IMG/VR virus record: IMGVR_UViG_3300044217_003764
Span: 1-50,064 of that record
DNA from: a virus
Lineage: Duplodnaviria > Caudoviricetes
Strand: one strand, 5' to 3'
DNA length: 50,064 bases
Part shown: piece after piece, positions 13,601-46,519 of the stretch
Layout: every line of letters begins with the position of its first letter
Numbering within the stretch: position 1 is the first letter of the stretch
Program-made: the position numbers and the translations under genes
Notes under the pieces: model-generated
Told to the model about the DNA's origin: nothing
What the model saw: only the letters and a program-made list of their open reading frames with translations
Database searches by the model: none

Positions 13601-16600
13601 GATTGGCTTCAATGATGATTTGGATCGCGGCACAGACACGTTCTTCGATCCGCGCCTGAACGAAGCGCAGAACAAGGCCGTGGAAATGGCCCGGAACAGA
13701 TTCTCGAATGCGGAAATCGCTGAAGAACTCGAATGGGATGGGCAGTCTGTTTCGAATGCCCTGTCTCGAGCGCGCAGCATGGGAATCGATGTGCCGCATG
13801 GATCTCGCGGTGCAGCCGGCATGGATCGCCTCTACATGGAGGAACTGATCGAGGTCGGCTTCAGCAACGAAGTCATTGCCCAGCGGACAGGCAAGACCCG
13901 CAATCACGTCAAGCAGGTTCGTCACCAGGTCAAGAATGGCGATATCAAACGCCTGCCGATGCAAACCGAAGTGAGGATGCAGCGCGCCAGGGATCTCGGC
14001 TGGAACACCGAGCGTCAAGTCTATCACGGCACGCCCGGTGAAATCGAAGGGGACGCGCTGCGCACGTCTCCGGACGGCCTGCTTGGCCGGGGCGTCTATC
14101 TCACGACGGCCACGGACCAGGCCAACACCTATGCGGGCGAAGACGGGGGCGCGGTCCTTCCTCTGTTCATCCGGGGTGAATTGGCCACGCTGGACCAACT
14201 CAAGGAAGCGCAGAAGCGCGCCGCTGCCGGCATCGGCAATGTCATGAATGCCCAGCGCAAGATCGCAGAACTGGCCCAGCACTATCTACAGCAGGCCGGC
14301 TATACGGGCGTTGAGGCTGGAACCACGATCGCGATGTTCGACTTCTCGGATGTGCGCAGCGTCAACGCCCGGTTCGACCCGATGAGGGACAGCCAGTCCG
14401 GGTTCATGCTCTCTCGCGGCGGTCAACAGGATGACATGTTCGACCCATACGCGGAGAAGGATGTCTATGTGAACCTGGCCCGCGTTGCTGGACCTGAAGA
14501 CTTCAAGGCCCTGATCCAGAAGCTGGCCAACGAAGCCCGGCCGGAAGTGAAGGAAAGAGTCGGTGGACGCCGCCCTCTGGCCCAGGTCGAACGCGAGGCA
14601 GCGAATGAGGAAGCCTTCAAGGCGCTCGCCAAACGCCGGCGCGGCAACATCCTGAACGACAAGGAAATGCTGGCCCTGCGCCAGCTTCGCGACTCTTCGG
14701 CGAACAAGATCCGGGAACTGGCGGAACTGTACCAGCAGAGCCCGTCACTCGCAGCCAAGGCTGCGCTTCACCGGGCGATGGTCCTTCATCGCACGATCCA
14801 GGCTGAAGTCTCAGGCGCCTCTGCCGATGCGGCGCGCTTGCTCGGCTCGCTGCGTATCCTGTCGAAAGACAGCACGACCCGCCGCATGGCGATGGAAGAT
14901 GCGTTGGCCCGCTGGGACAATGACGAGAATGTGGATGATCTGGTGAAACGCATCGCGCGCCTTGGCCCGAACCAGCAAGTCGAGCTCGATGATCTTGTTC
15001 GCGTCAGCATGAAGCAGGCGTGGACAGATCTCGGCGGGGCATGGATCAGGGCCATGTTCCTGTCCAACCCGAAGACGCACATCGTCAACGCCACTGGCAA
15101 CATGGCGGTCATGGCGATGGATGTGGGCTCAACCTATTTCGGGGGCGCGCTGACGATGGATCAGCAAATGATCTCCGAGGCCGGGGTGCGAGCATCTGAA
15201 CTGATGGACGCCTTCTACTACCAGATGCGCTATATGGCTCAGCACAGCCAGATGAACCCGACGAAGCCGAACGTCTCCCTGCGCTTTGACGATATGGGCG
15301 TGAATGGCAGGCAGGTTGACGCCGGTTCTGAACGCGCCCTCTCAGCCGGCCGCGTAAGCGCCCTGACGGGTGGGCTGGCCTCCAATCCGAGCGAAGACAG
15401 CATCGTCGGCCACACGATCAACCTGATCGGGTACGGCATCGCCGCTCCGTCGGAAGCGCTTGGTGTGGCGGATGACATGTTCAAGGGCATCAACTATCGC
15501 GTGGAAATGCGGGCGCTTGCCTTGCGCCAGGCGAACGCTGAAGCCCGCGACGGCCGGATCGACAAGGATCAGGTTTCAATGCGCATCGAAGAGCTTCTGG
15601 CAGATCCTTCGGATGAAATGATCCAGACGGCGCGTCATGCCGCACAGGAGCGGACATTCACCAACCGCCCGGGTCCGCTGACAATGGGTGTGCTGCGCTT
15701 CCGCAGGGCACTGAACAATGTGACAGGACTGCCGCTTGGGCACTTGCTGTTGCCGTTCGTCATCACACCTTCGAACATCTTCAGCTACACATTCCGTCAT
15801 CTGCCATCGGCCGCATTCTTCCCAGAGTGGCGGGCGGACTATGCTGCAGGAGGCCAGCGCCGCGCTCGCGCCGTCGGTCAGGTGGCGATGGGCACAAGCG
15901 TCATGATGCTGGGAATGGGCCTTGCCTCTGCCGGCATCATGAACGGCTCCGGCCCGGATGACATCGAGAAGAAGCGGGAACTGCAGGGCCTTGCCGGCGC
16001 TGGCTTCCAGCCCTTCGCTCTGAACATTGATGGTCACAGCTACACGATTGACCGTCTGGACCCCGTGTCTTCGATGCTGCTGATCGGCGCGGAGCTCAAT
16101 GAGATCTGGGCGAACAAGGGCTGGGACAGTGAGCCGGATGATGAACTCGGGGATCTGCTGACGAGCTCGGTTCTCAACATCGGCCGCATGATGCTGGACA
16201 AGTCCTACATGACCGGCCTGCGCGACTTTGTGAGGGCGCTGGAAGATCCGTACTATCGTGAGCGGTACTTCGCACGAACAGCCGCGGCCGTGACCACGCC
16301 AGCCCTGTCGGCCGAGATCCGCCGGCAAACGGACCCGTTCTGGCGGGAGGCAGACACAGCCATCGCCTCGATCAAGAATCGCATTCCCACGATGTCGGAG
16401 ACACTGCCGCAGGAGTATGACCTGTTCGGCCGTCCGAAGGTGTACCAGTCCGGTCATGGCGTTGTGTATGATTCGCTCATGCCGTTCATTGCCAAGAAGA
16501 TCGACCCGTCTCCGATCGATACCGAGTTGATGCGCCTGCACTACTTGCCATCCACAATGGACCGCTCCATCGGAGTGCCGGTCGGACCCCAAAGTATGCA

Positions 16601-16964
16601 AGTCTCGCTTCGAGAGCATCCGGAGATATACTCCCGCATGAGCCAGTTGATGGGGGGAGACAAGGATCTGAAGATCCCGTCCGTTCTTGATCGACTGAAT
16701 GAGCTCGTGGAATCGGATGGGTACGCAAAACTGATGGATGGCCCTGATCCGCTGCGAGGCTCAAAAGCCCGTGCGATCCAGGACGTCCTGGCAGATCATC
16801 GCGAGCGTGTGAGGCAGATCGTCGTCACCGAATATTGGGGCGACCTGCAGCAGCTCGGCCGCGAGGAACTGAAGCGGTCTCTGGCCCGCGCTGCAGAGCA
16901 GGAGGAAGAGCGTCAGTCTGAAATGGCTGCGGCACTTGCTGATGCTGTTGCGCAGGGCGAATAG
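10629..16964 (+). CDS. Large internal virion / polyvalent protein (metallopeptidase-like, HTH and ART-like domains)
   Basis: ~2,111 aa; HEVGIH at ~12825, tandem HTH-like segments ~13655-13935, YHGT...GRGVYLT at ~14020-14110. Confidence 0.8.
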   Translation: MPGNAADAAYEARRKERLRGIMSQMDGEIAAEEAAAAPAPVAEDEDLWSERPERGDVLKKRAETMGVYGALKAINDGGGDPTVSSADVNRAFIKQSGRELQMAGKNIADTVPAIGTSWQKMGSDLNAFYLENPGLIPRVPQEFRAPQEVIEDFILSNEVFRAIPVVGDSFGPASKEEREAKIAESREKSAGLEEKMREQLPEGENAIQQGVVDTTLNLGMMLPSLAASVVTKNPNVGLAMMGTQTGATSYGDARRAGADPTKAYRYGIMMGAVEAATERLPLKYLVGDIGKKTPFLETLKKQLISDGLGEQAATHIQDMLTWVELNPEKTFADYIEERPEAIQRTAITSAMMSLVMTGGQQGISQLGGKDEAPAPESEGGAGEVAEAPAPEAPENSETPPQPQPNEEDQAETSPDPDKLAEVEAISEVIERAEPAQQPTAREESDAFVAEYEAALGITPEFEDLAESQPDPGEGGLGRTFESLVEENAEPRPEATSFRDQFGTDRPETPIEAKAIDEIEAATPEATSFRSYFGRKSFGGEGLESAPEAATEDVDTTLLSDDEVSAIADNEVLATPEAADAESMLEIAEQNYDEVLTDDILTGLDDQFDMPAEEVREIMDGAIEGQGSTKKFNTLMKRVDKVRRSGVKAARGDKLSDFDKEMNARRRQLHRVALNTFGEWYLELAKSGRVGFASNMQDVLPGVPEDTMAMAMPDGKVVISDRIDPRDFEGLFLHEVGIHAGLQGLIGASGKEAILAEVDRLAETGERFASVARQWARQMAFRPEHAREETLAYLVQFAPAAPIVTRAIASMKVWIARRFPGLIPRLGWKTADFRQLALLSIRNQAYKALEMPVSFRSGLDSDHTTLVLDRPHKSRPPILNPKYRKWPYSQFGEPDPLLLNQTRTTINLEDVGNFRQNVINNEEVLTDPHTLEAMFQAHTDFDVFGYQDLIETVKASDDPDAAYELSAMLEPLKGMDAPLDIQYARGDGFLRPIGFNDDLDRGTDTFFDPRLNEAQNKAVEMARNRFSNAEIAEELEWDGQSVSNALSRARSMGIDVPHGSRGAAGMDRLYMEELIEVGFSNEVIAQRTGKTRNHVKQVRHQVKNGDIKRLPMQTEVRMQRARDLGWNTERQVYHGTPGEIEGDALRTSPDGLLGRGVYLTTATDQANTYAGEDGGAVLPLFIRGELATLDQLKEAQKRAAAGIGNVMNAQRKIAELAQHYLQQAGYTGVEAGTTIAMFDFSDVRSVNARFDPMRDSQSGFMLSRGGQQDDMFDPYAEKDVYVNLARVAGPEDFKALIQKLANEARPEVKERVGGRRPLAQVEREAANEEAFKALAKRRRGNILNDKEMLALRQLRDSSANKIRELAELYQQSPSLAAKAALHRAMVLHRTIQAEVSGASADAARLLGSLRILSKDSTTRRMAMEDALARWDNDENVDDLVKRIARLGPNQQVELDDLVRVSMKQAWTDLGGAWIRAMFLSNPKTHIVNATGNMAVMAMDVGSTYFGGALTMDQQMISEAGVRASELMDAFYYQMRYMAQHSQMNPTKPNVSLRFDDMGVNGRQVDAGSERALSAGRVSALTGGLASNPSEDSIVGHTINLIGYGIAAPSEALGVADDMFKGINYRVEMRALALRQANAEARDGRIDKDQVSMRIEELLADPSDEMIQTARHAAQERTFTNRPGPLTMGVLRFRRALNNVTGLPLGHLLLPFVITPSNIFSYTFRHLPSAAFFPEWRADYAAGGQRRARAVGQVAMGTSVMMLGMGLASAGIMNGSGPDDIEKKRELQGLAGAGFQPFALNIDGHSYTIDRLDPVSSMLLIGAELNEIWANKGWDSEPDDELGDLLTSSVLNIGRMMLDKSYMTGLRDFVRALEDPYYRERYFARTAAAVTTPALSAEIRRQTDPFWREADTAIASIKNRIPTMSETLPQEYDLFGRPKVYQSGHGVVYDSLMPFIAKKIDPSPIDTELMRLHYLPSTMDRSIGVPVGPQSMQVSLREHPEIYSRMSQLMGGDKDLKIPSVLDRLNELVESDGYAKLMDGPDPLRGSKARAIQDVLADHRERVRQIVVTEYWGDLQQLGREELKRSLARAAEQEEERQSEMAAALADAVAQGE

Positions 16965-16966
16965 CG

Positions 16967-16995
16967 TTGACTTCAGGGCGGCTCTAGGCCATAAC
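16967..16995 (+). promoter_or_regulatory. Sigma70-type promoter
   Basis: TTGACT-17 nt-CATAAC directly after the large gene's stop. Confidence 0.6.
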
Positions 16996-17001
16996 TGATT
17001 C

Positions 17002-17085
17002 CAGACCTGCGGGCCGTCTACCCGCGTAAATGGGTCTCCATTGGTAAAGCGGTGCGTTCCTTGAACGTGCCGCTTTATTCATTTT
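17002..17085 (+). ncRNA. Candidate small RNA containing GUCUCCAUUGGU (antisense to the CAAUGGAGAC RBS)
   Basis: Bounded by a promoter and a 15-bp terminator hairpin (17045-17077) with a T-rich tail; 5' stem AGACC/GGTCT; no ORF. Confidence 0.5.
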
Positions 17086-17115
17086 CAAGCCTCACCTATC
17101 GCCAAGGAGAGGCCC

Positions 17116-17436
17116 ATGACCGCCCCAAAAATCGACAATTCCGTGATTGCTGCCGCTGCCGCTGCCGGCGTTATGCCGCTGGTCGCCCAAATGCTCGGCA
17201 ATAGCCCGAAGGTCAAAGACCTGATCGATGAGCTCGCCAGCATCGAGGCATTCGCGGCTGATGCTCACAAGGAAGTGGCTGACCGCTACAGTGCCTTCCG
17301 CGTCCGCATCGCCGAATTCTTGAGTGAACGCGGCCTTGGCCAGTTGGTCGAAGACTATCAGGCGGCAACCACAGAGCCAGAGCCGGTTCAGGTGGCAGGC
17401 GATCCGCGCCGCGAAGCCGACATCCCACAAGGCTGA
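17116..17436 (+). CDS. Hypothetical protein
   Basis: AAGGAG SD; 106 aa. Confidence 0.75.
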   Translation: MTAPKIDNSVIAAAAAAGVMPLVAQMLGNSPKVKDLIDELASIEAFAADAHKEVADRYSAFRVRIAEFLSERGLGQLVEDYQAATTEPEPVQVAGDPRREADIPQG

Positions 17437-17439
17437 ACG

Positions 17440-18000
17440 ATGTTCTTCACGCCGCAAGAGGTACGACCATCCAGCCCCGGGGTTGCCCTGGGGCTGGTGC
17501 TCTCGATCCATGACATCGAGGAAACCGGCACGACCCGTCAGGGGCGCCCGGAATACCGACTGTTGCGCCGTGTCTGGTACAAGGATTTCGAGGTGCCTGC
17601 GGGCTTCATCTTCGACGTCCACTCGCTTCCGCGCCTGCTTCGTTTCTGGCAGCCCCGCAATCCCGCATGGTGGGGTCCGCCCGCGCTGCATGATTGGGCG
17701 CTCGAGAGTGGCCTGATCTCGATCAAGGAAGCGAACGAGCTATACCGATCCGCGATGGAAGATCTCGGTGTGAGGCCCATTCACCGTTTCGCAGCCTATC
17801 GCGGCGTTGAGATTGGCCGGCGCTTTTTCCCAGATCGCATCACGCGCATCGATCCGGACAATGCCGACCTGGTTGAGCAGATCGCCGGCCGGGAAGCGGT
17901 CTATCATGAGCGCAATGCCGGTGTTCGCAGGGTATTGTTCAAGGCGGCTAAGTTCGCTGCAACCGGCTATCTCCGGAGCCGTGGAGTTACACTGCTATGA
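17440..18000 (+). CDS. DUF1353-like protein
   Basis: VPAGFIFD..S.PR, ALHDW and AN.LY..AM..LGV pattern. Confidence 0.7.
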   Translation: MFFTPQEVRPSSPGVALGLVLSIHDIEETGTTRQGRPEYRLLRRVWYKDFEVPAGFIFDVHSLPRLLRFWQPRNPAWWGPPALHDWALESGLISIKEANELYRSAMEDLGVRPIHRFAAYRGVEIGRRFFPDRITRIDPDNADLVEQIAGREAVYHERNAGVRRVLFKAAKFAATGYLRSRGVTLL

Positions 18001-18587
18001 CGGCGATCGTTTACTCCCCCAACTTCCGCATCGCCCTGGCTGAGACGCTGAGCCATGAAGGCGGATATGCAAACCACCCGAATGATCCGGGCGGTGTCAC
18101 CATGCGCGGTGTCACGATCGGAACATGGGCAAAGTGGACCCGTCGCGGCAAGTCCTCCATCACGGTTGAGGAAATGCGCTCACTGACGATGGAAGACATC
18201 ATGCCGCTGTACCATGCGTGGTACTGGCGTGCTGTGCGAGCAGACGAATTGCCGGGCGGTCTCGATTTCGTAACCTTCGACATTGCCGTCAACTCCGGTG
18301 CCAAGCGCGCGGTGAAGATGCTGCAGAAGGCGATTAACAAGCTCGGCCGCATCCACATCATCGTGGATGGTGTCATCGGCCCCAAGACGATCAGTGCCGC
18401 GAACAAGATCAACGTCTTTGACCTGATCGATGAGGTCGGCAACACGCGCCTCTGGTTCTATTTCGACCTGTCCACGTTCCGCACTTTTGGAAAAGGCTGG
18501 ATGAAGCGCCTGCTGAAAGTGACCAGCTTTGCAACTGCAATGGCGCTGGGCAAGGCCGAAGCAATGATCCTCGCCCGGGCTGCGTGA
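17997..18587 (+). CDS. Endolysin, glycoside hydrolase family 108 with C-terminal peptidoglycan-binding domain
   Basis: HEGGYANHPNDPGGVTMRGVT, FDIAVNSG, DGVIGPKT and FGKGWMKR motifs. Confidence 0.92.
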   Translation: MTAIVYSPNFRIALAETLSHEGGYANHPNDPGGVTMRGVTIGTWAKWTRRGKSSITVEEMRSLTMEDIMPLYHAWYWRAVRADELPGGLDFVTFDIAVNSGAKRAVKMLQKAINKLGRIHIIVDGVIGPKTISAANKINVFDLIDEVGNTRLWFYFDLSTFRTFGKGWMKRLLKVTSFATAMALGKAEAMILARAA

Positions 18588-18672
18588 ATTGCCCCGGTGC
18601 GGGGACGCCTGAAGGACACGCGCGCAATATAAGCCCTCATCCCGATATCGTCCCTGGAAAGGAAATGAATAA

Positions 18673-19257
18673 ATGAAACTCACGCGCCTCGCTGCATTCC
18701 TGCTCGCCCCGCTCATGCTTGCCGCATGTGGCACCCTTCAAGCGTTGCCCTCTGTCGGCGACAAGGACAGCACGCCTCGCCAGGCTGCGGCCGTTGTGCA
18801 AAACGATGTCGGCCCTGCTGTCGCGGATCTCGCCGATCTGTGTGAGGCCGGCATTCTCCAGCCTGATACCAAGGCGGTCATCGCCGAGTATGGCCCGAAG
18901 ATCCGCCAAGCCGTCGGCGCCTATGCTGAGAGCGCTGCCAACTGTGTCGTCATTGACGGCCGACTGCAGACCGACACGTCCACCGGCAAGGTATGTGCGC
19001 GGGGTGACGTCAAGGCTGTGACCTCTGAGCTGCCCTCTCTCCTGATGGATGCTGGCCGAGCGATCGGACTTGAGACGTCTACGGGGTACAGGGTCTTTCT
19101 TGCCGGCTTCGCGGCCCGACGGATCATCGGAACCAATACGGGCGGCATCATCGATGGCTTCTCGAAGGAACCGGATCTCACGCTCGAGGAATACCAGACC
19201 TTGTGGACCCCAACCCAAGCCGCTGCTGATCGCCTTGAGGCGTGCGCCAAAGGCTAG
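18673..19257 (+). CDS. Lipoprotein (lysis cassette, possible spanin-type function)
   Basis: Signal peptide with LAAC lipobox; follows endolysin. Confidence 0.7.
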   Translation: MKLTRLAAFLLAPLMLAACGTLQALPSVGDKDSTPRQAAAVVQNDVGPAVADLADLCEAGILQPDTKAVIAEYGPKIRQAVGAYAESAANCVVIDGRLQTDTSTGKVCARGDVKAVTSELPSLLMDAGRAIGLETSTGYRVFLAGFAARRIIGTNTGGIIDGFSKEPDLTLEEYQTLWTPTQAAADRLEACAKG

Positions 19258-32391: not shown

Positions 32392-32461
32392 TTTTTCAGT
32401 CTCCATTGTCTGCCTTACCTGTATACCAAAGGCGGTTAATATGTCCTAATCGGAATTGGCA

Positions 32462-32503
32462 TCGAAAATATCGATTGCATGTCGATATTATCGACGTTAT
32501 GCG
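32462..32503 (+). promoter_or_regulatory. Rightward (cro) promoter with two operators
   Basis: TCGAAAATATCGA at 32462 and TCGATATTATCGA at 32482; TTGCAT-17-TATGCG. Confidence 0.65.
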
Positions 32504-35943: not shown

Positions 35944-37457
35944 GCGACCGCAAATCAATGGAAGACATTCACTTCCCGGATCGCCAGCCCAAGGCAGAGC
36001 CGCCCCATAATCTGGGGGCAGAGGCTGCGGTGCTGGGTGCGGTGCTGTTCGATAACATTGCCTATGAGCGGACGCAGGAGATCCTGCGCTTCGATGATTT
36101 CTATACGCCGGTTCACCAGGAGATATACCGCGCAATGGAGGTCCGTATCCAGAACGGACTGGTGGCCAATGGCGTCACCATGCGCGAATACTTCGAGACC
36201 GAAGGCAAGCTGGCCGATATCGGCGGAGCCAAGTATCTCGAACAGTTAATGGACAGCGCCGCGTTCGGCCCGGAGATCCGGGATTACTCGGCGATAATCC
36301 GTCACAATGCGGCACGCCGTGCGATCATTGAGGCGGGAGAGTACCTGCAGGCCACGGCCCAGGACCCCAAGGAGAGCGAGAGCGCATCGGCCCTGATTGA
36401 GCGGGCGCGTGAGCGGCTGCAGGGCGTCGAAGACATGCGCTTGCGTGGATCTCAATGGAAGTCTGCCGCTGAAGCCGTGTTGCCGGTGGTGGTCGAGCTT
36501 GAAGACCGACTGAACAACGGTCGTGGCTCGGAAGTTGCGGGCCTTAAGACGGGGATTGATGATCTAGACAAAGCCATCGGCGGACTGCGGAAGGGGAACC
36601 TGATCATTCTTGCCGGACGGCCGGGCATGGCCAAGTCCGGTATCGCTGGAAACATCGCAGCGAACGTGGCTGGTGATCAGGTGCCGGGCGGCGCGGGTGA
36701 AAAGCAGGTCGTGGGTTTCTTCTCCCTGGAAATGGAGAACCGCGAGCTCGGAACCCGCCTCAGTACACAGATGGCCCACAAAACCGGCATCGGTCGCGTC
36801 GAGTACCAGGACGCCATCAACGGATCTCTCGGCCAGAACCAGTTTGCAATCATTGCCGCTGGCGCGAGAGCTATTCCGGAGACGCTGGTTCTGGATGAGA
36901 CGCCCTATCTGTCGGCTGCAGACATCGGTGCCCGTGCCCGTGCCCTGAAGCGCTCGGCCGGTCGACTGGATCTCATCGTGATCGATTATCTGCAGATCAT
37001 GAATTACCAGATCCAGAAGGGTGAGAACCTGTCATCAGCCATCGGCCGAACGACATCCGCCTTGAAGCGATTGGCCAAGGAACTCGGTGTTCCGATTGTG
37101 GCCCTGTCCCAGCTATCACGCAATTGCGAGCAGCGCGACAACAAGCGGCCGATCCTGTCCGACCTCAGAGAGTCGGGCTCCATCGAGCAGGACGCCGACG
37201 TCGTGCTGTTTGTCTACCGAGACGCCTACTACCACGAAGCGAAGGAGCCCCCTCACGGGGCGAAGGATTCTGCCGCTGCGGTCAAATGGGCCGAGTGGTG
37301 GAGCGAGCTCAAAGCCGTCGAGAACAAAGCCGAGATCCACGCCGCGAAGGTCCGCATGGCCAAGGGTGGCCGCATCATTGCGCACTATGACCTGGGGTCC
37401 GACGCGCTCGTGAACAGCGAAAAAGAACTGACAGTAGAGGGAGACATGTACTCATGA
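35940..37457 (+). CDS. dnaB: DnaB-like replicative helicase
   Basis: PPHNLGAEAAVLG, AGRPGMAKS, FSLEM, IDYLQ, LSQLSR and SDLRESGSIEQDAD motifs. Confidence 0.95.
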   Translation: MSDRKSMEDIHFPDRQPKAEPPHNLGAEAAVLGAVLFDNIAYERTQEILRFDDFYTPVHQEIYRAMEVRIQNGLVANGVTMREYFETEGKLADIGGAKYLEQLMDSAAFGPEIRDYSAIIRHNAARRAIIEAGEYLQATAQDPKESESASALIERARERLQGVEDMRLRGSQWKSAAEAVLPVVVELEDRLNNGRGSEVAGLKTGIDDLDKAIGGLRKGNLIILAGRPGMAKSGIAGNIAANVAGDQVPGGAGEKQVVGFFSLEMENRELGTRLSTQMAHKTGIGRVEYQDAINGSLGQNQFAIIAAGARAIPETLVLDETPYLSAADIGARARALKRSAGRLDLIVIDYLQIMNYQIQKGENLSSAIGRTTSALKRLAKELGVPIVALSQLSRNCEQRDNKRPILSDLRESGSIEQDADVVLFVYRDAYYHEAKEPPHGAKDSAAAVKWAEWWSELKAVENKAEIHAAKVRMAKGGRIIAHYDLGSDALVNSEKELTVEGDMYS

Positions 37458-41182: not shown

Positions 41183-41356
41183 CTAGTTCGTTTTGGCCGG
41201 GCCTTGGGTAGCTGGCACGGGGTCCAGCGCGGCCAGGGCGGCGGTCGCAGATGTCACGCGGGCTTCTACCCGCTCGATGGCTTCGGCCAGACGCTTTGCT
41301 GATGTCTCCAGACGTTCAGCGGCTTTCTCTGCATCCACGAAATTCTTGTTAGCCAT
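41183..41356 (-). CDS. Operon gene 9, 57-aa helical protein
   Basis: CAATGGAGAC SD then ATG (MANKNFVD). Confidence 0.7.
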   Translation of the reverse strand: MANKNFVDAEKAAERLETSAKRLAEAIERVEARVTSATAALAALDPVPATQGPAKTN

Positions 41357-41380
41357 TGTCTTAGTCTCCATTGGTCTATC

Positions 41381-41433
41381 GGTGCACAGCGCACCCGATG
41401 CCCGCCACCCTTGCAGATGGCGGGACACGGCTA
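41381..41433 (-). ncRNA. Structured intergenic RNA motif B, copy 1 (not a hammerhead)
   Basis: TAG-CCGTG-T-[10-bp stem, GCAA loop]-CATCGG-GTGC-GCTGT-GCACC; covaries with copy 2. Confidence 0.6.
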
Positions 41434-41676
41434 GGCTGGTTCGGCTTCGGCCTCTTCCTCCTGCACTTCGGCCTCATAGTTGAAAACCGAAGCGACAAAG
41501 GTGGCTTCAACATTCTCTATCCCTTCAACGTCCGCCAGGTGGCGCAGGTCGCAGGCGAGATCTTTAATCCAGGTGTCGGTATCGTTTGCGTTCGGGCTGT
41601 CGCCGGTGTGGCTGATGTATGTTGCCAGCGCAGCACGAGCCCGTTCCGCACGATCCGCATTTGTCCAAGTGCCCAT
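41431..41676 (-). CDS. Operon gene 8, hypothetical
   Basis: CAATGGAGAC SD; TNADRAERARAAL...IKDLACDLRHLAD. Confidence 0.8.
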   Translation of the reverse strand: MGTWTNADRAERARAALATYISHTGDSPNANDTDTWIKDLACDLRHLADVEGIENVEATFVASVFNYEAEVQEEEAEAEPA

Positions 41677-41695
41677 TTGTGTCTCCATTGATTGT

Positions 41696-41752
41696 GGTGG
41701 AAAAGCCCACCGGATGGCCCTGCTGCCAGTTCAGCAACAGGGCGCACCGCTA
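41696..41752 (-). ncRNA. Structured intergenic RNA motif B, copy 2
   Basis: TAG-CGGTG-C-[12-bp stem]-CATCCG-GTGG-GCTTTT-CCACC. Confidence 0.6.
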
Positions 41753-42295
41753 GGCTCCGGTGCCGACGACTTGCTCGAGTCGGTCAGCTACCGCGTCCAG
41801 GTCTCCCCGATACGTTGGGAAGGCAACAACCTGCGCACCGTCGGTGGCGTAATTGATCACCTCGATGTTCAGGTCGGTTGGGAGTGCAGGGGATTCGGTT
41901 GCCGGTTCTGGCACCTTGTCGCCTGTCATGTAGAGCCACTTGGCCGTGACCGTGGCGAACACAAAGCCCGCCGCCGCCGCGTATTGCATCACGAGCGGGG
42001 TATTGTCCCCGAACAGCCAGAGCGCGCCGTAATGGTGCACCCAGACCTCAACGCAAGCCAGGAAGAAGGCAAAGATGGCCGTGGCCGTTGCTTTCCACTT
42101 GGCAAATCCCGCGCGCATCATGACCAGTTCCAGCGACTCCGAAAGGAGCCATGTGAACGTGGCCAGGAAGCCGAGCAGGACCGCGACACGATCCCAGCCA
42201 AATCCCGCGTGACGTAGGCCGATGGCTGCAATCACGTTGGACATGAGGACGATGGCCACCGGCGCAAGCGTGGTGGCGTTCTGTCTTAGGTTCAT
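41750..42295 (-). CDS. Operon gene 7, multi-pass membrane protein
   Basis: AATGGAGAC SD then MNLRQNA; about 4 hydrophobic segments. Confidence 0.8.
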   Translation of the reverse strand: MNLRQNATTLAPVAIVLMSNVIAAIGLRHAGFGWDRVAVLLGFLATFTWLLSESLELVMMRAGFAKWKATATAIFAFFLACVEVWVHHYGALWLFGDNTPLVMQYAAAAGFVFATVTAKWLYMTGDKVPEPATESPALPTDLNIEVINYATDGAQVVAFPTYRGDLDAVADRLEQVVGTGA

Positions 42296-42318
42296 GGTTG
42301 GTCTCCATTTATTGAGCT

Positions 42319-42372
42319 GTCTCATCAGTGGCGCTTGCTCAAGACGCCAGACCCGCCGGGGCGGGTTTCGAC
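42319..42372 (-). ncRNA. Type II hammerhead ribozyme HH1
   Basis: GUC-GAAA-CCCGCC/GGCGGG-UC^UGGCG/CGCCA-CUGAUGA-GAC; loop I UUGAGC pairs with 3' tail GCUCAA; cleavage 42350/42349. Confidence 0.93.
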
Positions 42373-42584
42373 TAGGTGTCATCCTCCTGTGTTGCGATTT
42401 TGATCAATTCACGCTGTGGGCTGAGTATTGCGCCCAGCAGCAGGAACGCGCCCAGCGTGGCGGCAATGAACACCGCCAGCCCTGCCAGCCCGTGAATCTC
42501 GAATGCAGCAGGCACCATAAGGCTGCAGCAAACAAGGATCACCAGGCCGGACAGAATGCCGGTCAGGCGCATGGGGTCGTTCAT
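42372..42584 (-). CDS. Operon gene 6, two-TM membrane protein
   Basis: CAATGGAGG SD; TAG stop overlaps HH1 stem II. Confidence 0.8.
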   Translation of the reverse strand: MNDPMRLTGILSGLVILVCCSLMVPAAFEIHGLAGLAVFIAATLGAFLLLGAILSPQRELIKIATQEDDT

Positions 42585-42617
42585 GCGGTATCCTCCATTG
42601 GTTTTAGGGTGTGGCCT

Positions 42618-42680
42618 GTCTCATCAGTAGCGAGGGGCCAATCTCGCCAGACCCCACCCCTTGCGGGGTAGGGTTTCGAC
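42618..42680 (-). ncRNA. Type II hammerhead ribozyme HH2
   Basis: Stem III ACCCUACCCC-GCAA-GGGGUGGGGU, C^, stem I UGGCGAG/CUCGCUA, CUGAUGA; pseudoknot UGGCC/GGCCA; cleavage 42650/42649. Confidence 0.95.
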
Positions 42681-43417
42681 TATGCCGCAACCGGCATTTT
42701 CTCCGGTTCTTGCACGATCGCCAGGGGCGCGCCCGTGGTGTCAAACCATTGCGGACGTCCAGAGTCCGCGCCGGCATTGGCACGCAAGGGCATAAGCACG
42801 CCGAACAGGTCGCGCTTACCGTCATCTGCAGGCCCGAACGTCACCAAAGCGGGATCATTCGGCCCCTCACTCCAGATGGAGATCGGGGCAGACCTTTGAT
42901 TGCAGAAGTCTGCAGCGGCCATTGTGAACGCCTTGAGGTAATTGGCGTCATACGTTGACGCCTGCGTCACGGGCTTGCAGTTGGAGAACCGGGGAACGAC
43001 TCGCGTGATGTCTGGAAAGTCTCCGTCTATCACCTCGAACATGTGAGCCCCAACGGGCAGGCGCCCTCCGTTTTCGTCCATGTCGAACAGGAAGCCCGGC
43101 GCGCAACATGACTCGGTATCATCGGGGTTCACCTCGATCATGCGAGTGCCAAGCGTTTTGCGGTCTTCCTTGAACACTGCGCCGGGCAGCTTGTGGCCTT
43201 CCGTTCGCAGGATCACGCCTTTACCGTCCGGCGCGAAGCCGTCCGGATCATAGGCAACAATGAGCTTGTGACCGTCCGTTGCCGCCAGCATCACACCGGG
43301 CTGATTGCCAGGCGCGCGGCTGACGTGAAGCCCATTCAGGTAATAGCGGCTCTTCTCTTTCGAGGTGAACCGATAAACCGTGCGGAAAAGGGCGGCACTA
43401 AAGCGATAATTGGTCAT
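42680..43417 (-). CDS. Operon gene 5, DNA polymerase III beta (sliding clamp)-like protein
   Basis: SRYYLNGL...AATDGHKL and IDGDFPDITRVVP match DnaN central-domain motifs; only 245 aa. Confidence 0.75.
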   Translation of the reverse strand: MTNYRFSAALFRTVYRFTSKEKSRYYLNGLHVSRAPGNQPGVMLAATDGHKLIVAYDPDGFAPDGKGVILRTEGHKLPGAVFKEDRKTLGTRMIEVNPDDTESCCAPGFLFDMDENGGRLPVGAHMFEVIDGDFPDITRVVPRFSNCKPVTQASTYDANYLKAFTMAAADFCNQRSAPISIWSEGPNDPALVTFGPADDGKRDLFGVLMPLRANAGADSGRPQWFDTTGAPLAIVQEPEKMPVAA

Positions 43418-43444
43418 TGTGTAGTCTCCATTGATTGTAACCCT

Positions 43445-43506
43445 GTCTCATCAGTGCAAGGCGGGTTAGGCCCTTGCAGACCCCGGCGCGCGGCCGGGGT
43501 TTCGAC
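43445..43506 (-). ncRNA. Type II hammerhead ribozyme HH3
   Basis: Stem III ACCCCGGC/GCCGGGGU, C^, stem I UGCAAGG/CCUUGCA, CUGAUGA; pseudoknot UAACCC/GGGUUA; cleavage 43479/43478. Confidence 0.95.
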
Positions 43507-43988
43507 TATCCGCGCTTTCGGCGCATCAGGTCAGTGAGGGAAACGACTTGCGGCGTCCCCTCCGGTTCGTCAAAGCCCCAAGGGGCATCGTCGTAACCAG
43601 GAAGTTTCGAGATCATGGATTTTCGCAGTTGCTGCACCCATTTTGCGGCCCAGCGTTCGTGATAATCGTTCGTTTCACATGCCTGATAGTCGTAACAATC
43701 GCAGGCTTTCAGCACGATCACGGGAGTCACGAAGGTTGGGTGAATCCGTCGAAAGGTGTAGCGTTCGATTGCTTCCATCCCTTCCAGGTCGTCACCTTGA
43801 TAGCGGAACAGCACCGAGCGCGTGTTTTCACGCAACAGGGCCTTTCCGAGAGCGTCCGCATCATCCGGGTCGTCACCTTTTGGCGCGCCGGGTAATGTGG
43901 AAAAATACGAGCTGGAAAAGTGGCGATCATCCATAGCTGCTGTTACCAGCAGGCTGATATGATCGTCGCTCACAACAAAAGCGGACAT
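43506..43988 (-). CDS. Operon gene 4, hypothetical phage protein
   Basis: CAATGGAGA SD then MSAFVVSDDHI; ENTRSV..RY and CYDYQACE motifs. Confidence 0.8.
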   Translation of the reverse strand: MSAFVVSDDHISLLVTAAMDDRHFSSSYFSTLPGAPKGDDPDDADALGKALLRENTRSVLFRYQGDDLEGMEAIERYTFRRIHPTFVTPVIVLKACDCYDYQACETNDYHERWAAKWVQQLRKSMISKLPGYDDAPWGFDEPEGTPQVVSLTDLMRRKRG

Positions 43989-44010
43989 AGGTATCTCCAT
44001 TGTTTAGCCT

Positions 44011-44071
44011 GTCTCATCAGACCGCAGGCGGCTAATCCTGCGATGACGCTCCGGTTAGGGAGCGTTTCGAC
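44011..44071 (-). ncRNA. Type II hammerhead ribozyme HH4
   Basis: Stem III ACGCUCC/GGAGCGU, C^, stem I AUCGCAGG/CCUGCGGU, CUGAUGA; pseudoknot UUAGCC/GGCUAA; cleavage 44045/44044. Confidence 0.95.
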
Positions 44072-44289
44072 TATTGGAAATCTTCGAGTCGGTGGCGTAC
44101 CGGCCGCCCATTGATCATGGGAACACCCCAGACCGTGGCCACACCGGCCGCATTGACCAGCGGTAGGTAAATAGGCGCAATTTCCCATGCAGCGCGCTGC
44201 TCTGACACGGTTTCCCATGTCCACCCTTTCGGCAGGTCGTAGCCAATAGGTGCAGCAAGGCACTCGCGTTCCGAGTTCGTGAGTTGCAT
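44071..44289 (-). CDS. Operon gene 3, 72-aa hypothetical
   Basis: CAATGGAGAC SD then MQLTNSERE; TAG overlaps HH4. Confidence 0.75.
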   Translation of the reverse strand: MQLTNSERECLAAPIGYDLPKGWTWETVSEQRAAWEIAPIYLPLVNAAGVATVWGVPMINGRPVRHRLEDFQ

Positions 44290-44317
44290 TTCAGTCTCCA
44301 TTGTATGGGTTTCGCGT

Positions 44318-44372
44318 GTCTCATCAGTGCCAGGCCGCGAGCCCTGACAGACGCCCCGGAGGGCGTTTCGAC
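44318..44372 (-). ncRNA. Type II hammerhead ribozyme HH5
   Basis: Stem III ACGCCC-UCCG-GGGCGU, C^, stem I UGUCAGG/CCUGGCA, CUGAUGA; pseudoknot UCGCG/CGCGA; cleavage 44350/44349. Confidence 0.95.
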
Positions 44373-44374
44373 TA

Positions 44375-44620
44375 TTAGATCGGTTCAAATTCCGCGCACG
44401 GTAGGCGTTCAAAGCCTGAAGGCTTGTGCACCTTCACAAACCGCCATCCGAGGCACTTCAGCACCGCGCGCATTTCATCGCAGGCTTGGTTGTCTCCCTC
44501 GGCGAAGTAGGCGAAGACTCTGCGCGTGACGCCCTCGCCAATCGTCCGAACCCCTCGGCAGGCGATGTCTTGCGCCTTAAATTGCGCCAGCGCTTCGCCC
44601 GGTTTAATTGGGTACGTCAT
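44375..44620 (-). CDS. Operon gene 2, 81-aa hypothetical
   Basis: CAATGGAGA SD then MTYPIKPG; ends TAA-TAG abutting HH5. Confidence 0.75.
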   Translation of the reverse strand: MTYPIKPGEALAQFKAQDIACRGVRTIGEGVTRRVFAYFAEGDNQACDEMRAVLKCLGWRFVKVHKPSGFERLPCAEFEPI

Positions 44621-44651
44621 TAGTTCAATCTCCATTGTAGGTAATTGGCCT

Positions 44652-44708
44652 GTCTCATCAGTGCAGCTAGGCCAGATGCTGCAGACCGGGCCGGAGCCCG
44701 GTTTCGAC
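44652..44708 (-). ncRNA. Type II hammerhead ribozyme HH6
   Basis: Stem III ACCGGGC-UCCG-GCCCGGU, C^, stem I UGCAGC/GCUGCA, CUGAUGA; pseudoknot UGGCC/GGCCA; cleavage 44684/44683. Confidence 0.95.
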
Positions 44709-44878
44709 TAATTGGCGTCTTTCCCGTCATGCCAGTGACCTTGAACCAGGTTCACGGATGCGATGAGGGCAACGGCGACAGCAAGTGCGAATAGAGTTGC
44801 GAAGGGCCACAGGGCCAGCAATGTAGCCATGACCTTCACGCCCATCAGCGCGGCGAGTGCCATAAGTGCAAAACGCAT
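44708..44878 (-). CDS. Operon gene 1, 56-aa hydrophobic peptide (absent from the ORF track)
   Basis: CAATGGAGA SD; MRFALMALAALMGVKVMATLLALWPFATLFALAVAVALIASVNLVQGHWHDGKDAN ends exactly at the TAG of HH6. Confidence 0.75.
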   Translation of the reverse strand: MRFALMALAALMGVKVMATLLALWPFATLFALAVAVALIASVNLVQGHWHDGKDAN

Positions 44879-44904
44879 AATTCAATCTCCATTGAGTGTG
44901 ATCT

Positions 44905-44993
44905 GTCTCTTCAGGCCCAGCGCGATCAATCACCAGGCGACACGGCACGCGCTTAGACATGGGCTGGAGAGGCCCGGCGCGCCGTGTTTCGAC
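44905..44993 (-). ncRNA. Type II hammerhead ribozyme HH7 (5' leader, extended stem III, CUGAAGA core)
   Basis: GUC-GAAA-CACGGC.../...GCCGUG-UC^GCCUGGUG/CGCUGGGC-CUGAAGA-GAC; pseudoknot UGAUC/GAUCA; cleavage 44939/44938. Confidence 0.9.
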
Positions 44994-45048
44994 TTGTCCC
45001 TAACGATGTCAAACAACATGAGCGGGGAAATGAGCCCGTCCCATGCAT

Positions 45049-45093
45049 TCGATAATATCGAACATATCGAGCAATTGCAATCGAAAATATCGA
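45049..45093 (-). promoter_or_regulatory. Promoter of the ribozyme operon overlapped by three operators
   Basis: TTGCAA(45080-45075)-17-TATTAT(45057-45052); TCGA-N5-TCGA at 45049, 45058 and 45081. Confidence 0.75.
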
Positions 45094-45127
45094 ACAAAAC
45101 CCCCAAGCGATAGACAAAACGCCATAG

Positions 45128-45160
45128 ATGCTAGAGACAATGCTAGAGACAACAGAGACA
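45128..45160. repeat. Tandem 12-bp repeat ATGCTAGAGACA x2 plus a partial copy
   Basis: Seen directly upstream of terS. Confidence 0.7.
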
Positions 45161-45196
45161 CAGGCGCGCCAGCGCCGCGCAGCGGGATCATGACCA

Positions 45197-46444: not shown

Positions 46445-46519
46445 TGTGGGGTGGCGCAGAGGTAGCGCGTCGGTCTCATAATCCGAAGGTCGGAGGTTCG
46501 AATCCTCTCCCTGCACCCA
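46445..46519 (+). tRNA. tRNA with CAU anticodon (fMet-like sequence, atypical identity elements)
   Basis: Cloverleaf: TGTGGGG/CCCTGCA, D stem GCGC, loop CTCATAA, GGAGG-TTCGAAT-CCTCT, encoded CCA. Confidence 0.85.

Follow-up and report, generated by a model that had tools for sequence, protein, structure and literature searches.

The window analyzed here, the whole of a stretch of 50,064 bp with a G+C content of 59%, is a complete IMG/VR virus record (IMGVR_UViG_3300044217_003764) and the genome of a marine temperate phage. At positions 16967-17085 of its plus strand, just past the stop codon of a gene for an internal virion protein of 2117 amino acids (aa) and ahead of a 106-aa gene, lies a short non-coding unit made up of promoter-like boxes, a 5′ hairpin, an invariant 11-mer and an intrinsic terminator (Table 1). 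The 11-mer is complementary to a ribosome binding site (RBS) motif that stands on the minus strand before a cI-like repressor gene and before each of nine small genes in an operon rich in hammerhead ribozymes. A first-pass annotation, made from the sequence alone, had proposed that the unit encodes a trans-acting small RNA (sRNA) that silences these genes through the RBS that they share. In the present analysis, the unit emerges with high confidence as a real, conserved and structured plus-strand RNA element; that it acts in trans as an anti-RBS sRNA, and so represents a new RNA family, is the reading toward which we lean with considerably more reserve.

Table 1. Features of the window that bear on the small-RNA unit and its predicted targets; for RBS motifs, the remarks give the net cofold energy (ddG) with the unit in kcal/mol
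Feature	Position	Strand	Remarks
Internal-virion-protein gene, 2117 aa	10611-16964	+	Stop codon just 5′ of the unit
−35 box TTGACT	16967-16972	+	Read from the sequence; TTGAC invariant in 5/5 aligned sequences (4 lineages); putative promoter element
−10 box CATAAC	16990-16995	+	17 nt past the −35 box; spacing kept in relatives; ATA invariant
Predicted RNA, about 76-83 nt	17003-17085	+	Putative start, placed from the −10 box; end within the T run
5′ hairpin	17003-17037	+	Outer stem 17003-17008/17032-17037; inner stem 17009-13/17021-25
GGTCTCCATTGGT	17033-17045	+	Spans the proposed seed
Invariant 11-mer GTCTCCATTGG, proposed seed	17034-17044	+	Complement of CAATGGAGAC; GUCU in the outer stem, CCAUU(GG) in the linker
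Intrinsic terminator	17046-17085	+	14-bp stem 17046-17059/17063-17076, 3-nt loop, then TTTATTCATTTT
106-aa gene	starts 17116	+	Next gene 3′ of the unit
cI-like repressor gene, 216 aa	31741-32391	−	HTH_3 and Peptidase_S24 domains
RBS motif, cI-like repressor (216 aa)	32399-32408	−	ddG −8.8
Operon of nine small genes with hammerheads	41183-44878	−	
RBS motif, gene 9 (57 aa)	41364-41373	−	12-nt seed match; ddG −11.2
RBS motif, gene 8 (81 aa)	41681-41690	−	ddG −11.2
RBS motif, gene 7 (181 aa)	42301-42310	−	AAATGGAGAC; ddG −9.9
RBS motif, gene 6 (70 aa)	42591-42600	−	CAATGGAGGA; ddG −10.8
RBS motif, gene 5 (245 aa)	43424-43433	−	ddG −12.4
RBS motif, gene 4 (160 aa)	43993-44002	−	ddG −8.7
RBS motif, gene 3 (72 aa)	44294-44303	−	ddG −10.5
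RBS motif, gene 2 (81 aa)	44628-44637	−	ddG −6.8, weak
RBS motif, gene 1 (56 aa)	44885-44894	−	ddG −5.2, weak
Six type II hammerheads	42311-44709	−	Between genes 1 and 7; Rfam RF02276, 38.8-45.9 bits (gathering score 37)

Anatomy and Folding of the Unit

The elements by which the first-pass annotation had delimited the unit, namely the promoter TTGACT-17-CATAAC, the segment GGTCTCCATTGGT and the terminator hairpin, are all present where it had placed them. Folding of positions 17003-17086 gave a minimum free energy (MFE) of −37.7 kcal/mol (z = −5.2), and folding of positions 17001-17085 gave −38.2 kcal/mol (z = −5.5 relative to shuffles). The RNA is predicted to consist of the 5′ hairpin, a short open linker and the intrinsic terminator, and in the folds of all four lineages in which the unit was found (see below) the segment CCAUU(GG) is unpaired, which leaves the seed at least partly single-stranded. 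A simple consensus scan misses the promoter, the −10 box of which lacks a T at position 6, and also the terminator, the T run of which is interrupted; both calls rest on folding and on the relatives. A search of positions 16900-17200 against Rfam 15 assigned no family, the best scores being at most 17 bits (E values of at least 0.35) and all on the minus strand.

Because every copy of CAATGGAGAC lies on the minus strand, transcription of the unit must run rightward if its RNA is to be antisense to the RBSs. We infer transcription of the plus strand from several features that agree with one another: the plus-strand folds are stronger than the minus-strand folds in 4/4 lineages (−33.9 to −38.3 vs −29.1 to −32.1 kcal/mol), a T run follows the hairpin on the plus strand only, the terminator stem contains U-G/G-U pairs in three of the four lineages that would be C-A mismatches on the minus strand, and both the promoter-like boxes and the neighboring genes have this orientation. 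Past the motif copy in the unit, the minus strand holds no conserved small open reading frame (ORF) and, in the window, no start codon. On the plus strand, a mini-ORF encoding MGLHW occurs in the window only and is without counterpart in the relatives.

Parts of the region 15000-19000 were found in three metatranscriptome runs and in one run of unstated kind. In the low-depth assemblies of the three metatranscriptome runs, no RNA contig extends over positions 16217-17094 and no DNA run bridges them, a result that argues neither for nor against a small RNA. Just past the terminator, RNA contigs from three studies start at 17095, 17106 and 17126 and cover the 106-aa gene, at a depth too low to interpret.

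Relatives and Covariation

Relatives were sought with the C-terminal 399 aa of the upstream internal virion protein as the query and independently of the seed. This protein-anchored search returned one IMG/VR relative (G001; 38.5 kb, 85% complete, 73% identity in the upstream protein) and eight metagenome loci, one of which is the window again and one G001 again; the six others represent two more lineages, the L094 group (five metagenome loci, 68-75% identity) and L097 (one metagenome locus, 57% identity). The unit lies directly 3′ of the stop codon of the internal-virion-protein gene in all loci found, which amount to four distinct lineages. The gene that follows is an amidase gene in two lineages (G001 and the L094 group) and a 106-aa gene in the two others, and as this neighbor differs between lineages, the unit is not tied to one neighbor.

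Further searches were made with the nucleotide sequence and with structural models. A distant BLAST search of GenBank phages with positions 15500-18600 gave no match, and a search of the species-genome collection yielded no relative of the flanking protein. Scans of viral contigs with the terminator only (14 stretches), with the hairpin plus seed (one) or with the operon leader (seven) returned no unit beyond that of G001, and among the seven operon-leader stretches only G001 and a 6.8-kb contig (L079) are related. A covariance model built from the unit family (R1), which scores the window's unit at 92.3 bits, was run over 38 sources (378 kb) comprising the window, 11 loci known to hold the unit, the operon locus of G001 (L026) and 25 loci of other phages (24 of these hammerhead-bearing, from 66). 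It matched only the nine known copies of the unit, besides two partial minus-strand matches of 18.4 bits at the terminator in the window and in L092. A seed-plus-terminator pattern match in a contig of a Rhodospirillaceae metagenome-assembled genome was rejected as a chance match, being surrounded by long overlapping ORFs and without a match to R1.

Among the lineages, the −10 box reads CATAAC, GATACC, GATACT or TATATC, the last belonging to the most distant lineage, L097, which carries TTGACA-17-TATATC. The spacer between the boxes is 17 nt long in the lineages and divergent in sequence (4-11 matches per 17-18 aligned columns), and the first stem begins at a fixed distance from the −10 box. 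The shared structure comprises 24 pairs, with 97.9% of 94 cells paired and four pairs changed on both sides. Its covariation score was 0.313 vs 0.191 in shuffles, none of 500 of which reached it; sliding the partners by 1-3 columns as a control reduced pairing to 37-55%, and RNAalifold independently produced the same fold. Both helices of the 5′ hairpin are 100% paired in all four sequences, with compensatory changes at pair 15-23 (G-C, A-U, C-G) and at pair 9-35 (C-G, U-A), while the terminator, a 14-bp stem that has compensatory changes and is accompanied by a T run in 4/4 lineages, has 96.3% of its cells paired and two pairs changed on both sides.

The alignment of the unit (A2) contains 59 invariant columns out of 142, and the longest invariant run, of 11 columns, coincides with GTCTCCATTGG from end to end (permutation p = 0.003). 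Column 5, on the 5′ strand of the outer stem, is A or G depending on the sequence, whereas its partner, a U on the seed side, is frozen; this asymmetry suggests that more than pairing constrains the seed strand. These statistics are modest, being drawn from four distinct sequences, and all point in one direction. The discrete unit of the first-pass annotation is thereby borne out as a conserved, structured plus-strand element in four lineages, although not by the consensus scan, which recognizes neither of its ends.

The gene context admits a second reading, in which the unit is transcriptional punctuation only, either as the 3′ untranslated region and terminator of the structural transcript or as an attenuator resembling the PR′/6S RNA/tR′ arrangement of lambda, and the RBS complementarity is a coincidence or a relic. 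In the lambda arrangement a constitutive promoter yields a short terminated RNA just 5′ of the lysis genes, past which polymerase continues with the help of an antiterminator; the short RNA would then be a by-product. Such punctuation would fit a position directly 3′ of the internal-virion-protein gene and directly 5′ of lysis-type genes in all four lineages (an amidase in G001 and the L094 group; a GH108 cassette in the window, where the virion block is followed by DUF1353 and by a GH108 endolysin with a peptidoglycan-binding domain). Further plus-strand late genes lie past the terminator, and the strong terminator and promoter-like boxes that this reading needs are both present. What it leaves unexplained is that the longest invariant block and the genome's most over-represented RBS word are exact complements, and that of the two strands of the outer stem only the one opposite the seed varies. 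Q-type antiterminators, moreover, were sought in the complete record with PF06530 and PF03589, neither of which had a match while controls were positive, and with PF06323, for which the search was uninformative since its control failed; an antiterminator unrelated to these families may yet be encoded. Inspection by eye revealed no conserved alternative (antiterminator) pairing, the GCGG of the terminator being CCGG in L097. We judge punctuation on its own to be a rather unlikely account of the unit.

The RBS Motif and the Predicted Targets

The 10-mer CAATGGAGAC has six exact copies in the window, all on the minus strand (17034, 32399, 41364, 41681, 43424 and 44294), where a mean of 0.14 copies was expected from 100 shuffles, none of which reached six; the first-pass annotation had put the chance expectation at about 0.1. 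Five of the copies precede start codons, those of operon genes 3, 5, 8 and 9 and of the cI-like repressor, just as the annotation had listed them, and the copy within the unit (17034-17043) is the sole one with no start codon after it. The 8-mer AATGGAGA occurs 11 times (1.93 expected), its eleventh copy lying at 36731 on the plus strand within a DnaB-like gene. Copies of the motif stand 5-11 nt before the ATG of ten genes, which are the nine operon genes and the cI-like repressor gene. The match to the seed is 12 nt long at gene 9 (ACCAATGGAGAC), again as had been noted, 10 nt at genes 6 and 7, and 9 nt at genes 1, 2 and 4, in keeping with the 8-10 nt attributed earlier to the other operon genes. 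Complementarity of 9-12 nt therefore links the unit to ten start regions that are 15-28 kb distant from it.

When the start regions were ranked by net cofold energy (pairing energy minus the self-structure of both RNAs), eight of the ten with the motif, at −8.7 to −12.4 kcal/mol, were among the 11 best of the 52 regions ranked (Mann-Whitney p = 2e-5). Genes 1 and 2 rank lower, and the separation is not complete, as set out in the Discussion. In G001, AATGGAGA occurs ten times, all on one strand, nine copies preceding the operon genes (9/9) and one lying in the unit of G001 itself. The net cofold energies of all nine operon start regions of G001 range from −8.6 to −14.3 kcal/mol, and no cI homologue was found in this 85%-complete record. 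A relative that keeps the RBS motif and lacks the seed was not seen: G001, the sole relative with both regions sequenced, has both. A comparison of seed and RBS for co-variation is uninformative because both are invariant.

Complementarity to an RBS need not imply action in trans. If the seed acted in cis, it would pair with the RBS of the next gene in read-through transcripts and gate the translation of the lysis genes, and the downstream RBS of the window (CCAAGGAGAGGCC, 17101-17113) does resemble the target motif minus one U, as the amidase start of the L094 group does in lying within CCCAATGGCGAGA. The downstream gene and its start region vary by lineage, however, with G001 (GACCCCATGCC) and L097 (AACAGGAGGTCCATG) having no comparable match, and the window's own downstream gene attains a cofold energy of only −4.4 kcal/mol. 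We regard action in cis as very improbable.

A further alternative concerns the origin of the complementarity. The 11-mer might be conserved for another cause, such as a protein site (for an RNA chaperone or nuclease, for example) or the stabilization of a 3′-end structure, and its likeness to the RBS might stem from inverted duplication of a hairpin plus RBS leader such as that of gene 9. Viewed on the minus strand, the unit presents a hairpin and then ACCAATGGAGAC, a layout found also in the leaders of genes 8 and 9, and an alignment by eye of the gene 9 leader (41374-41396; arm GCACCG, 4 nt, CCAATGGAGAC) with the minus strand at 17045-17066 matches at 19 of 23 ungapped positions. MAFFT, on the other hand, does not reproduce this homology beyond the motif, and a relic would not remain invariant over lineages in which the flanking protein falls to 57% identity. 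An inverted-duplication origin is also compatible with an antisense regulator, to which it is a classical route. Conservation for some unrelated cause accordingly strikes us as improbable, and a duplicate of the gene 9 leader in inverted orientation may have given rise to the RNA gene itself. The likeness to this leader would give six extra base pairs with the gene 9 mRNA.

Hammerheads and the RBS Motif in Other Phages

Each of the six hammerheads recognized by Rfam in the operon ends 0-25 nt before an RBS motif. An apparent seventh, variant hammerhead with a CUGAAGAG core, missed by Rfam, was identified by eye before gene 1 (44895-45020, minus strand). What lies 5′ of genes 8 and 9 is in each case a plain hairpin and no ribozyme, for which reason the "nine processed mRNAs" of the first-pass annotation were an overstatement. 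The variant hammerhead of the operon leader has a long stem III insertion with CCUCUCCAGCC, which is complementary to UGGAGA of the RBS word, and the same leader recurs in G001, as it does in L079, whose contig likewise begins the operon.

The loop of the 5′ hairpin of the unit reads CGUCUCA in three of the four lineages (L093 3749-3755, L094 and L097) and CCGUCUA, a weaker match, in the window (17014-17020). Its GUCUCA complements UGAGAC of the hammerhead core CUGAUGAGAC, which is found 10-30 nt 5′ of each RBS, and this complementarity could be a second contact site or a coincidence.

In unrelated phages, AAUGGAGA serves one to a few genes. Many loci in IMG/VR, L025, L036, L048 and L066 among them, have in common the order type II hammerhead, directly adjoining pseudoknot strand, AAUGGAGA and start codon (for example CTGATGAGACAAGCCAATGGAGA); the ribozyme and the RBS seem to move together as a single cassette. 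Among 17 hammerheads in other phages' loci outside the pattern selection, 11 have a different GGAG-type site after them (as a rule AAAGGAGA or TAAGGAGA), one has ATGGAG and five have none. Ten long records of other hammerhead phages, which are uninformative as a test set, hold 1-5 copies of AATGGAGA each on mixed strands and present no comparable regulon.

The suggestion that an sRNA explains the conserved CAAU flank of the RBS holds in part. Because AAUGGAGA follows hammerheads in unrelated phages in whose partial loci no such RNA was found, the sRNA would not be needed for the existence of the motif, only for its uniform use. Judged from the genomes compared, it is this uniform use that is lineage-specific, extending in two phages to 9/9 genes of the operon, some of which have no ribozyme, and to cI in the window.

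Control Regions and Other Genes of the Window

The virion block is encoded on the plus strand and includes terminase, portal-like and tail genes in addition to the internal-virion-protein gene. Near-identical operator-like repeats, TCGATATTTTCGAT and TTCGATATTATCGAA, are located 5′ of the cI-like gene (32440-32490) and 5′ of the hammerhead operon (45040-45100), and their likeness suggests that a single repressor controls both. A sigma-70-like sequence, TTGCAA-17-TATTAT, overlaps the repeats 5′ of the operon. Where the operon and the rightward genes diverge, the control region between them (45130-45180) contains TTGTCTCTAGCAT twice, with a partial copy, GTGTCTCTG, before the two; these repeats and the seed have GTCTC in common. 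Compared with the beta clamp of DNA polymerase III, gene 5 of the operon (245 aa; 42680-43417, minus strand) has a weak, sub-threshold likeness to the clamp's central domain (17.9 bits, cut-off 27). A tRNA gene (46445-46516; Rfam, 61 bits) stands among the rightward genes before the terminase gene.

Discussion

We propose that an RNA of about 80 nt is made from the plus strand, either from its own sigma-70-type promoter with a start near 17003 or, alternatively, by release from the long transcript of the structural genes, whose 3′ end it would form at the shared terminator. The open CCAUU(GG) of the invariant GUCUCCAUUGG would nucleate on CCAAUGG of the shared RBS, (C/A)AAUGGAGA(C), after which pairing would spread into GUCU and displace the outer stem, so that 9-12 bp would cover the Shine-Dalgarno GGAG. 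The 30S subunit would thereby be blocked from binding the repressor-controlled mRNAs of the early operon and the mRNA of the cI-like repressor. The hammerheads are expected to cut most of the operon into single-gene mRNAs, with translational coupling between cistrons being lost, and because each cleaved mRNA would then depend on its own copy of the private RBS, one RNA could silence the whole set. Hammerhead cleavage leaves 5′-OH ends, which are poor substrates for 5′-end-dependent decay, and given this resistance the sRNA may be the only efficient off-switch for the cleaved mRNAs.

Two options present themselves for the timing of this silencing. Being at the end of the virion block, the RNA might accumulate late and shut off the early-left operon together with cI; if its promoter were instead constitutive, it might act in the lysogen, in silencing or in immunity to superinfection, as c4 does in P1/P7. 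In its most general form, which we offer tentatively and with some doubt, the proposal is that the phage uses a private translation code, the early operon and the repressor being placed on an unusual RBS, CAAUGGAGAC, and all of them being silenced by one dedicated 80-nt RNA that would be an RNA counterpart of T4 RegA/RegB and would serve as a late shut-off or immunity RNA.

Several observations weigh against an sRNA acting in trans. The promoter in the window is weak, its −10 box being CATAAC, and the consensus scan calls neither this promoter nor the terminator; a terminator would be expected at the end of a long structural operon in any case. A conserved stem takes up the GUCU of the seed, and only about 5 nt stay open in the MFE folds. 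In net cofold, binding is weak at gene 1 (−5.2 kcal/mol) and at gene 2 (−6.8 kcal/mol), and two start regions without the motif score like targets (−12.7 and −10.9 kcal/mol). A genome-wide scan of duplex energy, for which the seed window was 25 nt long, fails to set the RBS sites apart from the GC-rich background, the best non-self match (−26.4 kcal/mol) lying within coding sequence. Only six or seven of the nine operon genes follow a hammerhead, and the type II hammerheads of many unrelated IMG/VR phages also have AAUGGAGA after them, while R1, run over partial loci of such phages, finds no unit there. Seed and RBS are invariant in every lineage seen and do not co-vary with each other. Sampling is limited, with the operon sequenced in one relative only and the family comprising four distinct sequences. 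To these may be added, although it is uninformative, that contigs of the three metatranscriptome runs leave the unit uncovered.

If the proposal is true, the phage carries a regulon-wide translational switch in RNA, with a seed that mirrors the RBS of about ten of the phage's own genes. The hammerhead clusters in prophage operons, a long-standing puzzle, would acquire a purpose, each gene being made addressable through its own RBS. The idea is open to synthetic constructs even though the host is uncultured.

Comparison with Known Systems

According to the available text of PMC12197685, known phage small RNAs mostly act on one neighboring gene (sar, OOP, c4) or on host mRNAs. No precedent for an RNA of the kind proposed here was found in the literature covered, subscription journals and supplements being outside that coverage. 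The target operon is itself of a described kind: multiple hammerheads flanking single prophage genes have been reported, with cleavage in vitro for examples from Agrobacterium, Azorhizobium and Clostridium (Perreault et al. 2011, PMC3088659). Unlike the unit, the clusters in the available text of that report have no partner small RNA described with them, and the terms "Shine-Dalgarno" and "ribosome binding" are absent from its main text (the supplements were outside the search).

The position of the unit, directly 5′ of lysis genes in four lineages, is like that of lambda 6S RNA. The latter is a short terminated transcript (PR′-tR′) whose promoter lies just 5′ of the lysis genes, and it is not known to act by base pairing. 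The unit differs in that no Q-family gene was found in the record (PF06530, PF03589) and in that its conserved core is an anti-RBS sequence.

Trans-encoded sRNAs such as GcvB and the C-rich RsaE type pair with the Shine-Dalgarno regions of many mRNAs. The unit is like them in its 5′ stem-loop, accessible conserved seed and Rho-independent terminator, and in having one seed for many start regions. It is unlike them in that the predicted regulon consists of the phage's own early operon and repressor, that the RBS is a private variant, and that most of the targets would arise by ribozyme self-cleavage. In phage T4, the translational repressor RegA and the endoribonuclease RegB, which cuts within GGAG, bring about a global shut-off of early mRNAs through their RBSs. 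The unit would likewise be a phage-encoded means of shutting off many early mRNAs post-transcriptionally through their RBSs; RegA and RegB are proteins, whereas the proposed effector here is an RNA.

The c4 RNA of phages P1 and P7, which controls a single operon leader (icd-ant), is released by processing of the transcript that also carries its target. In contrast, the unit is encoded on the opposite strand at a distance of 24 kb from its predicted target operon, with a seed that matches the start regions of ten genes. By the account in the available text of PMC12197685, c4 is a small structured phage RNA that pairs around the RBS of a phage mRNA, blocks its translation and underlies immunity. 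The unit is like c4 in being a phage-encoded, structured small RNA that is complementary to RBS regions of phage mRNA, the pairing being in this case a predicted one.

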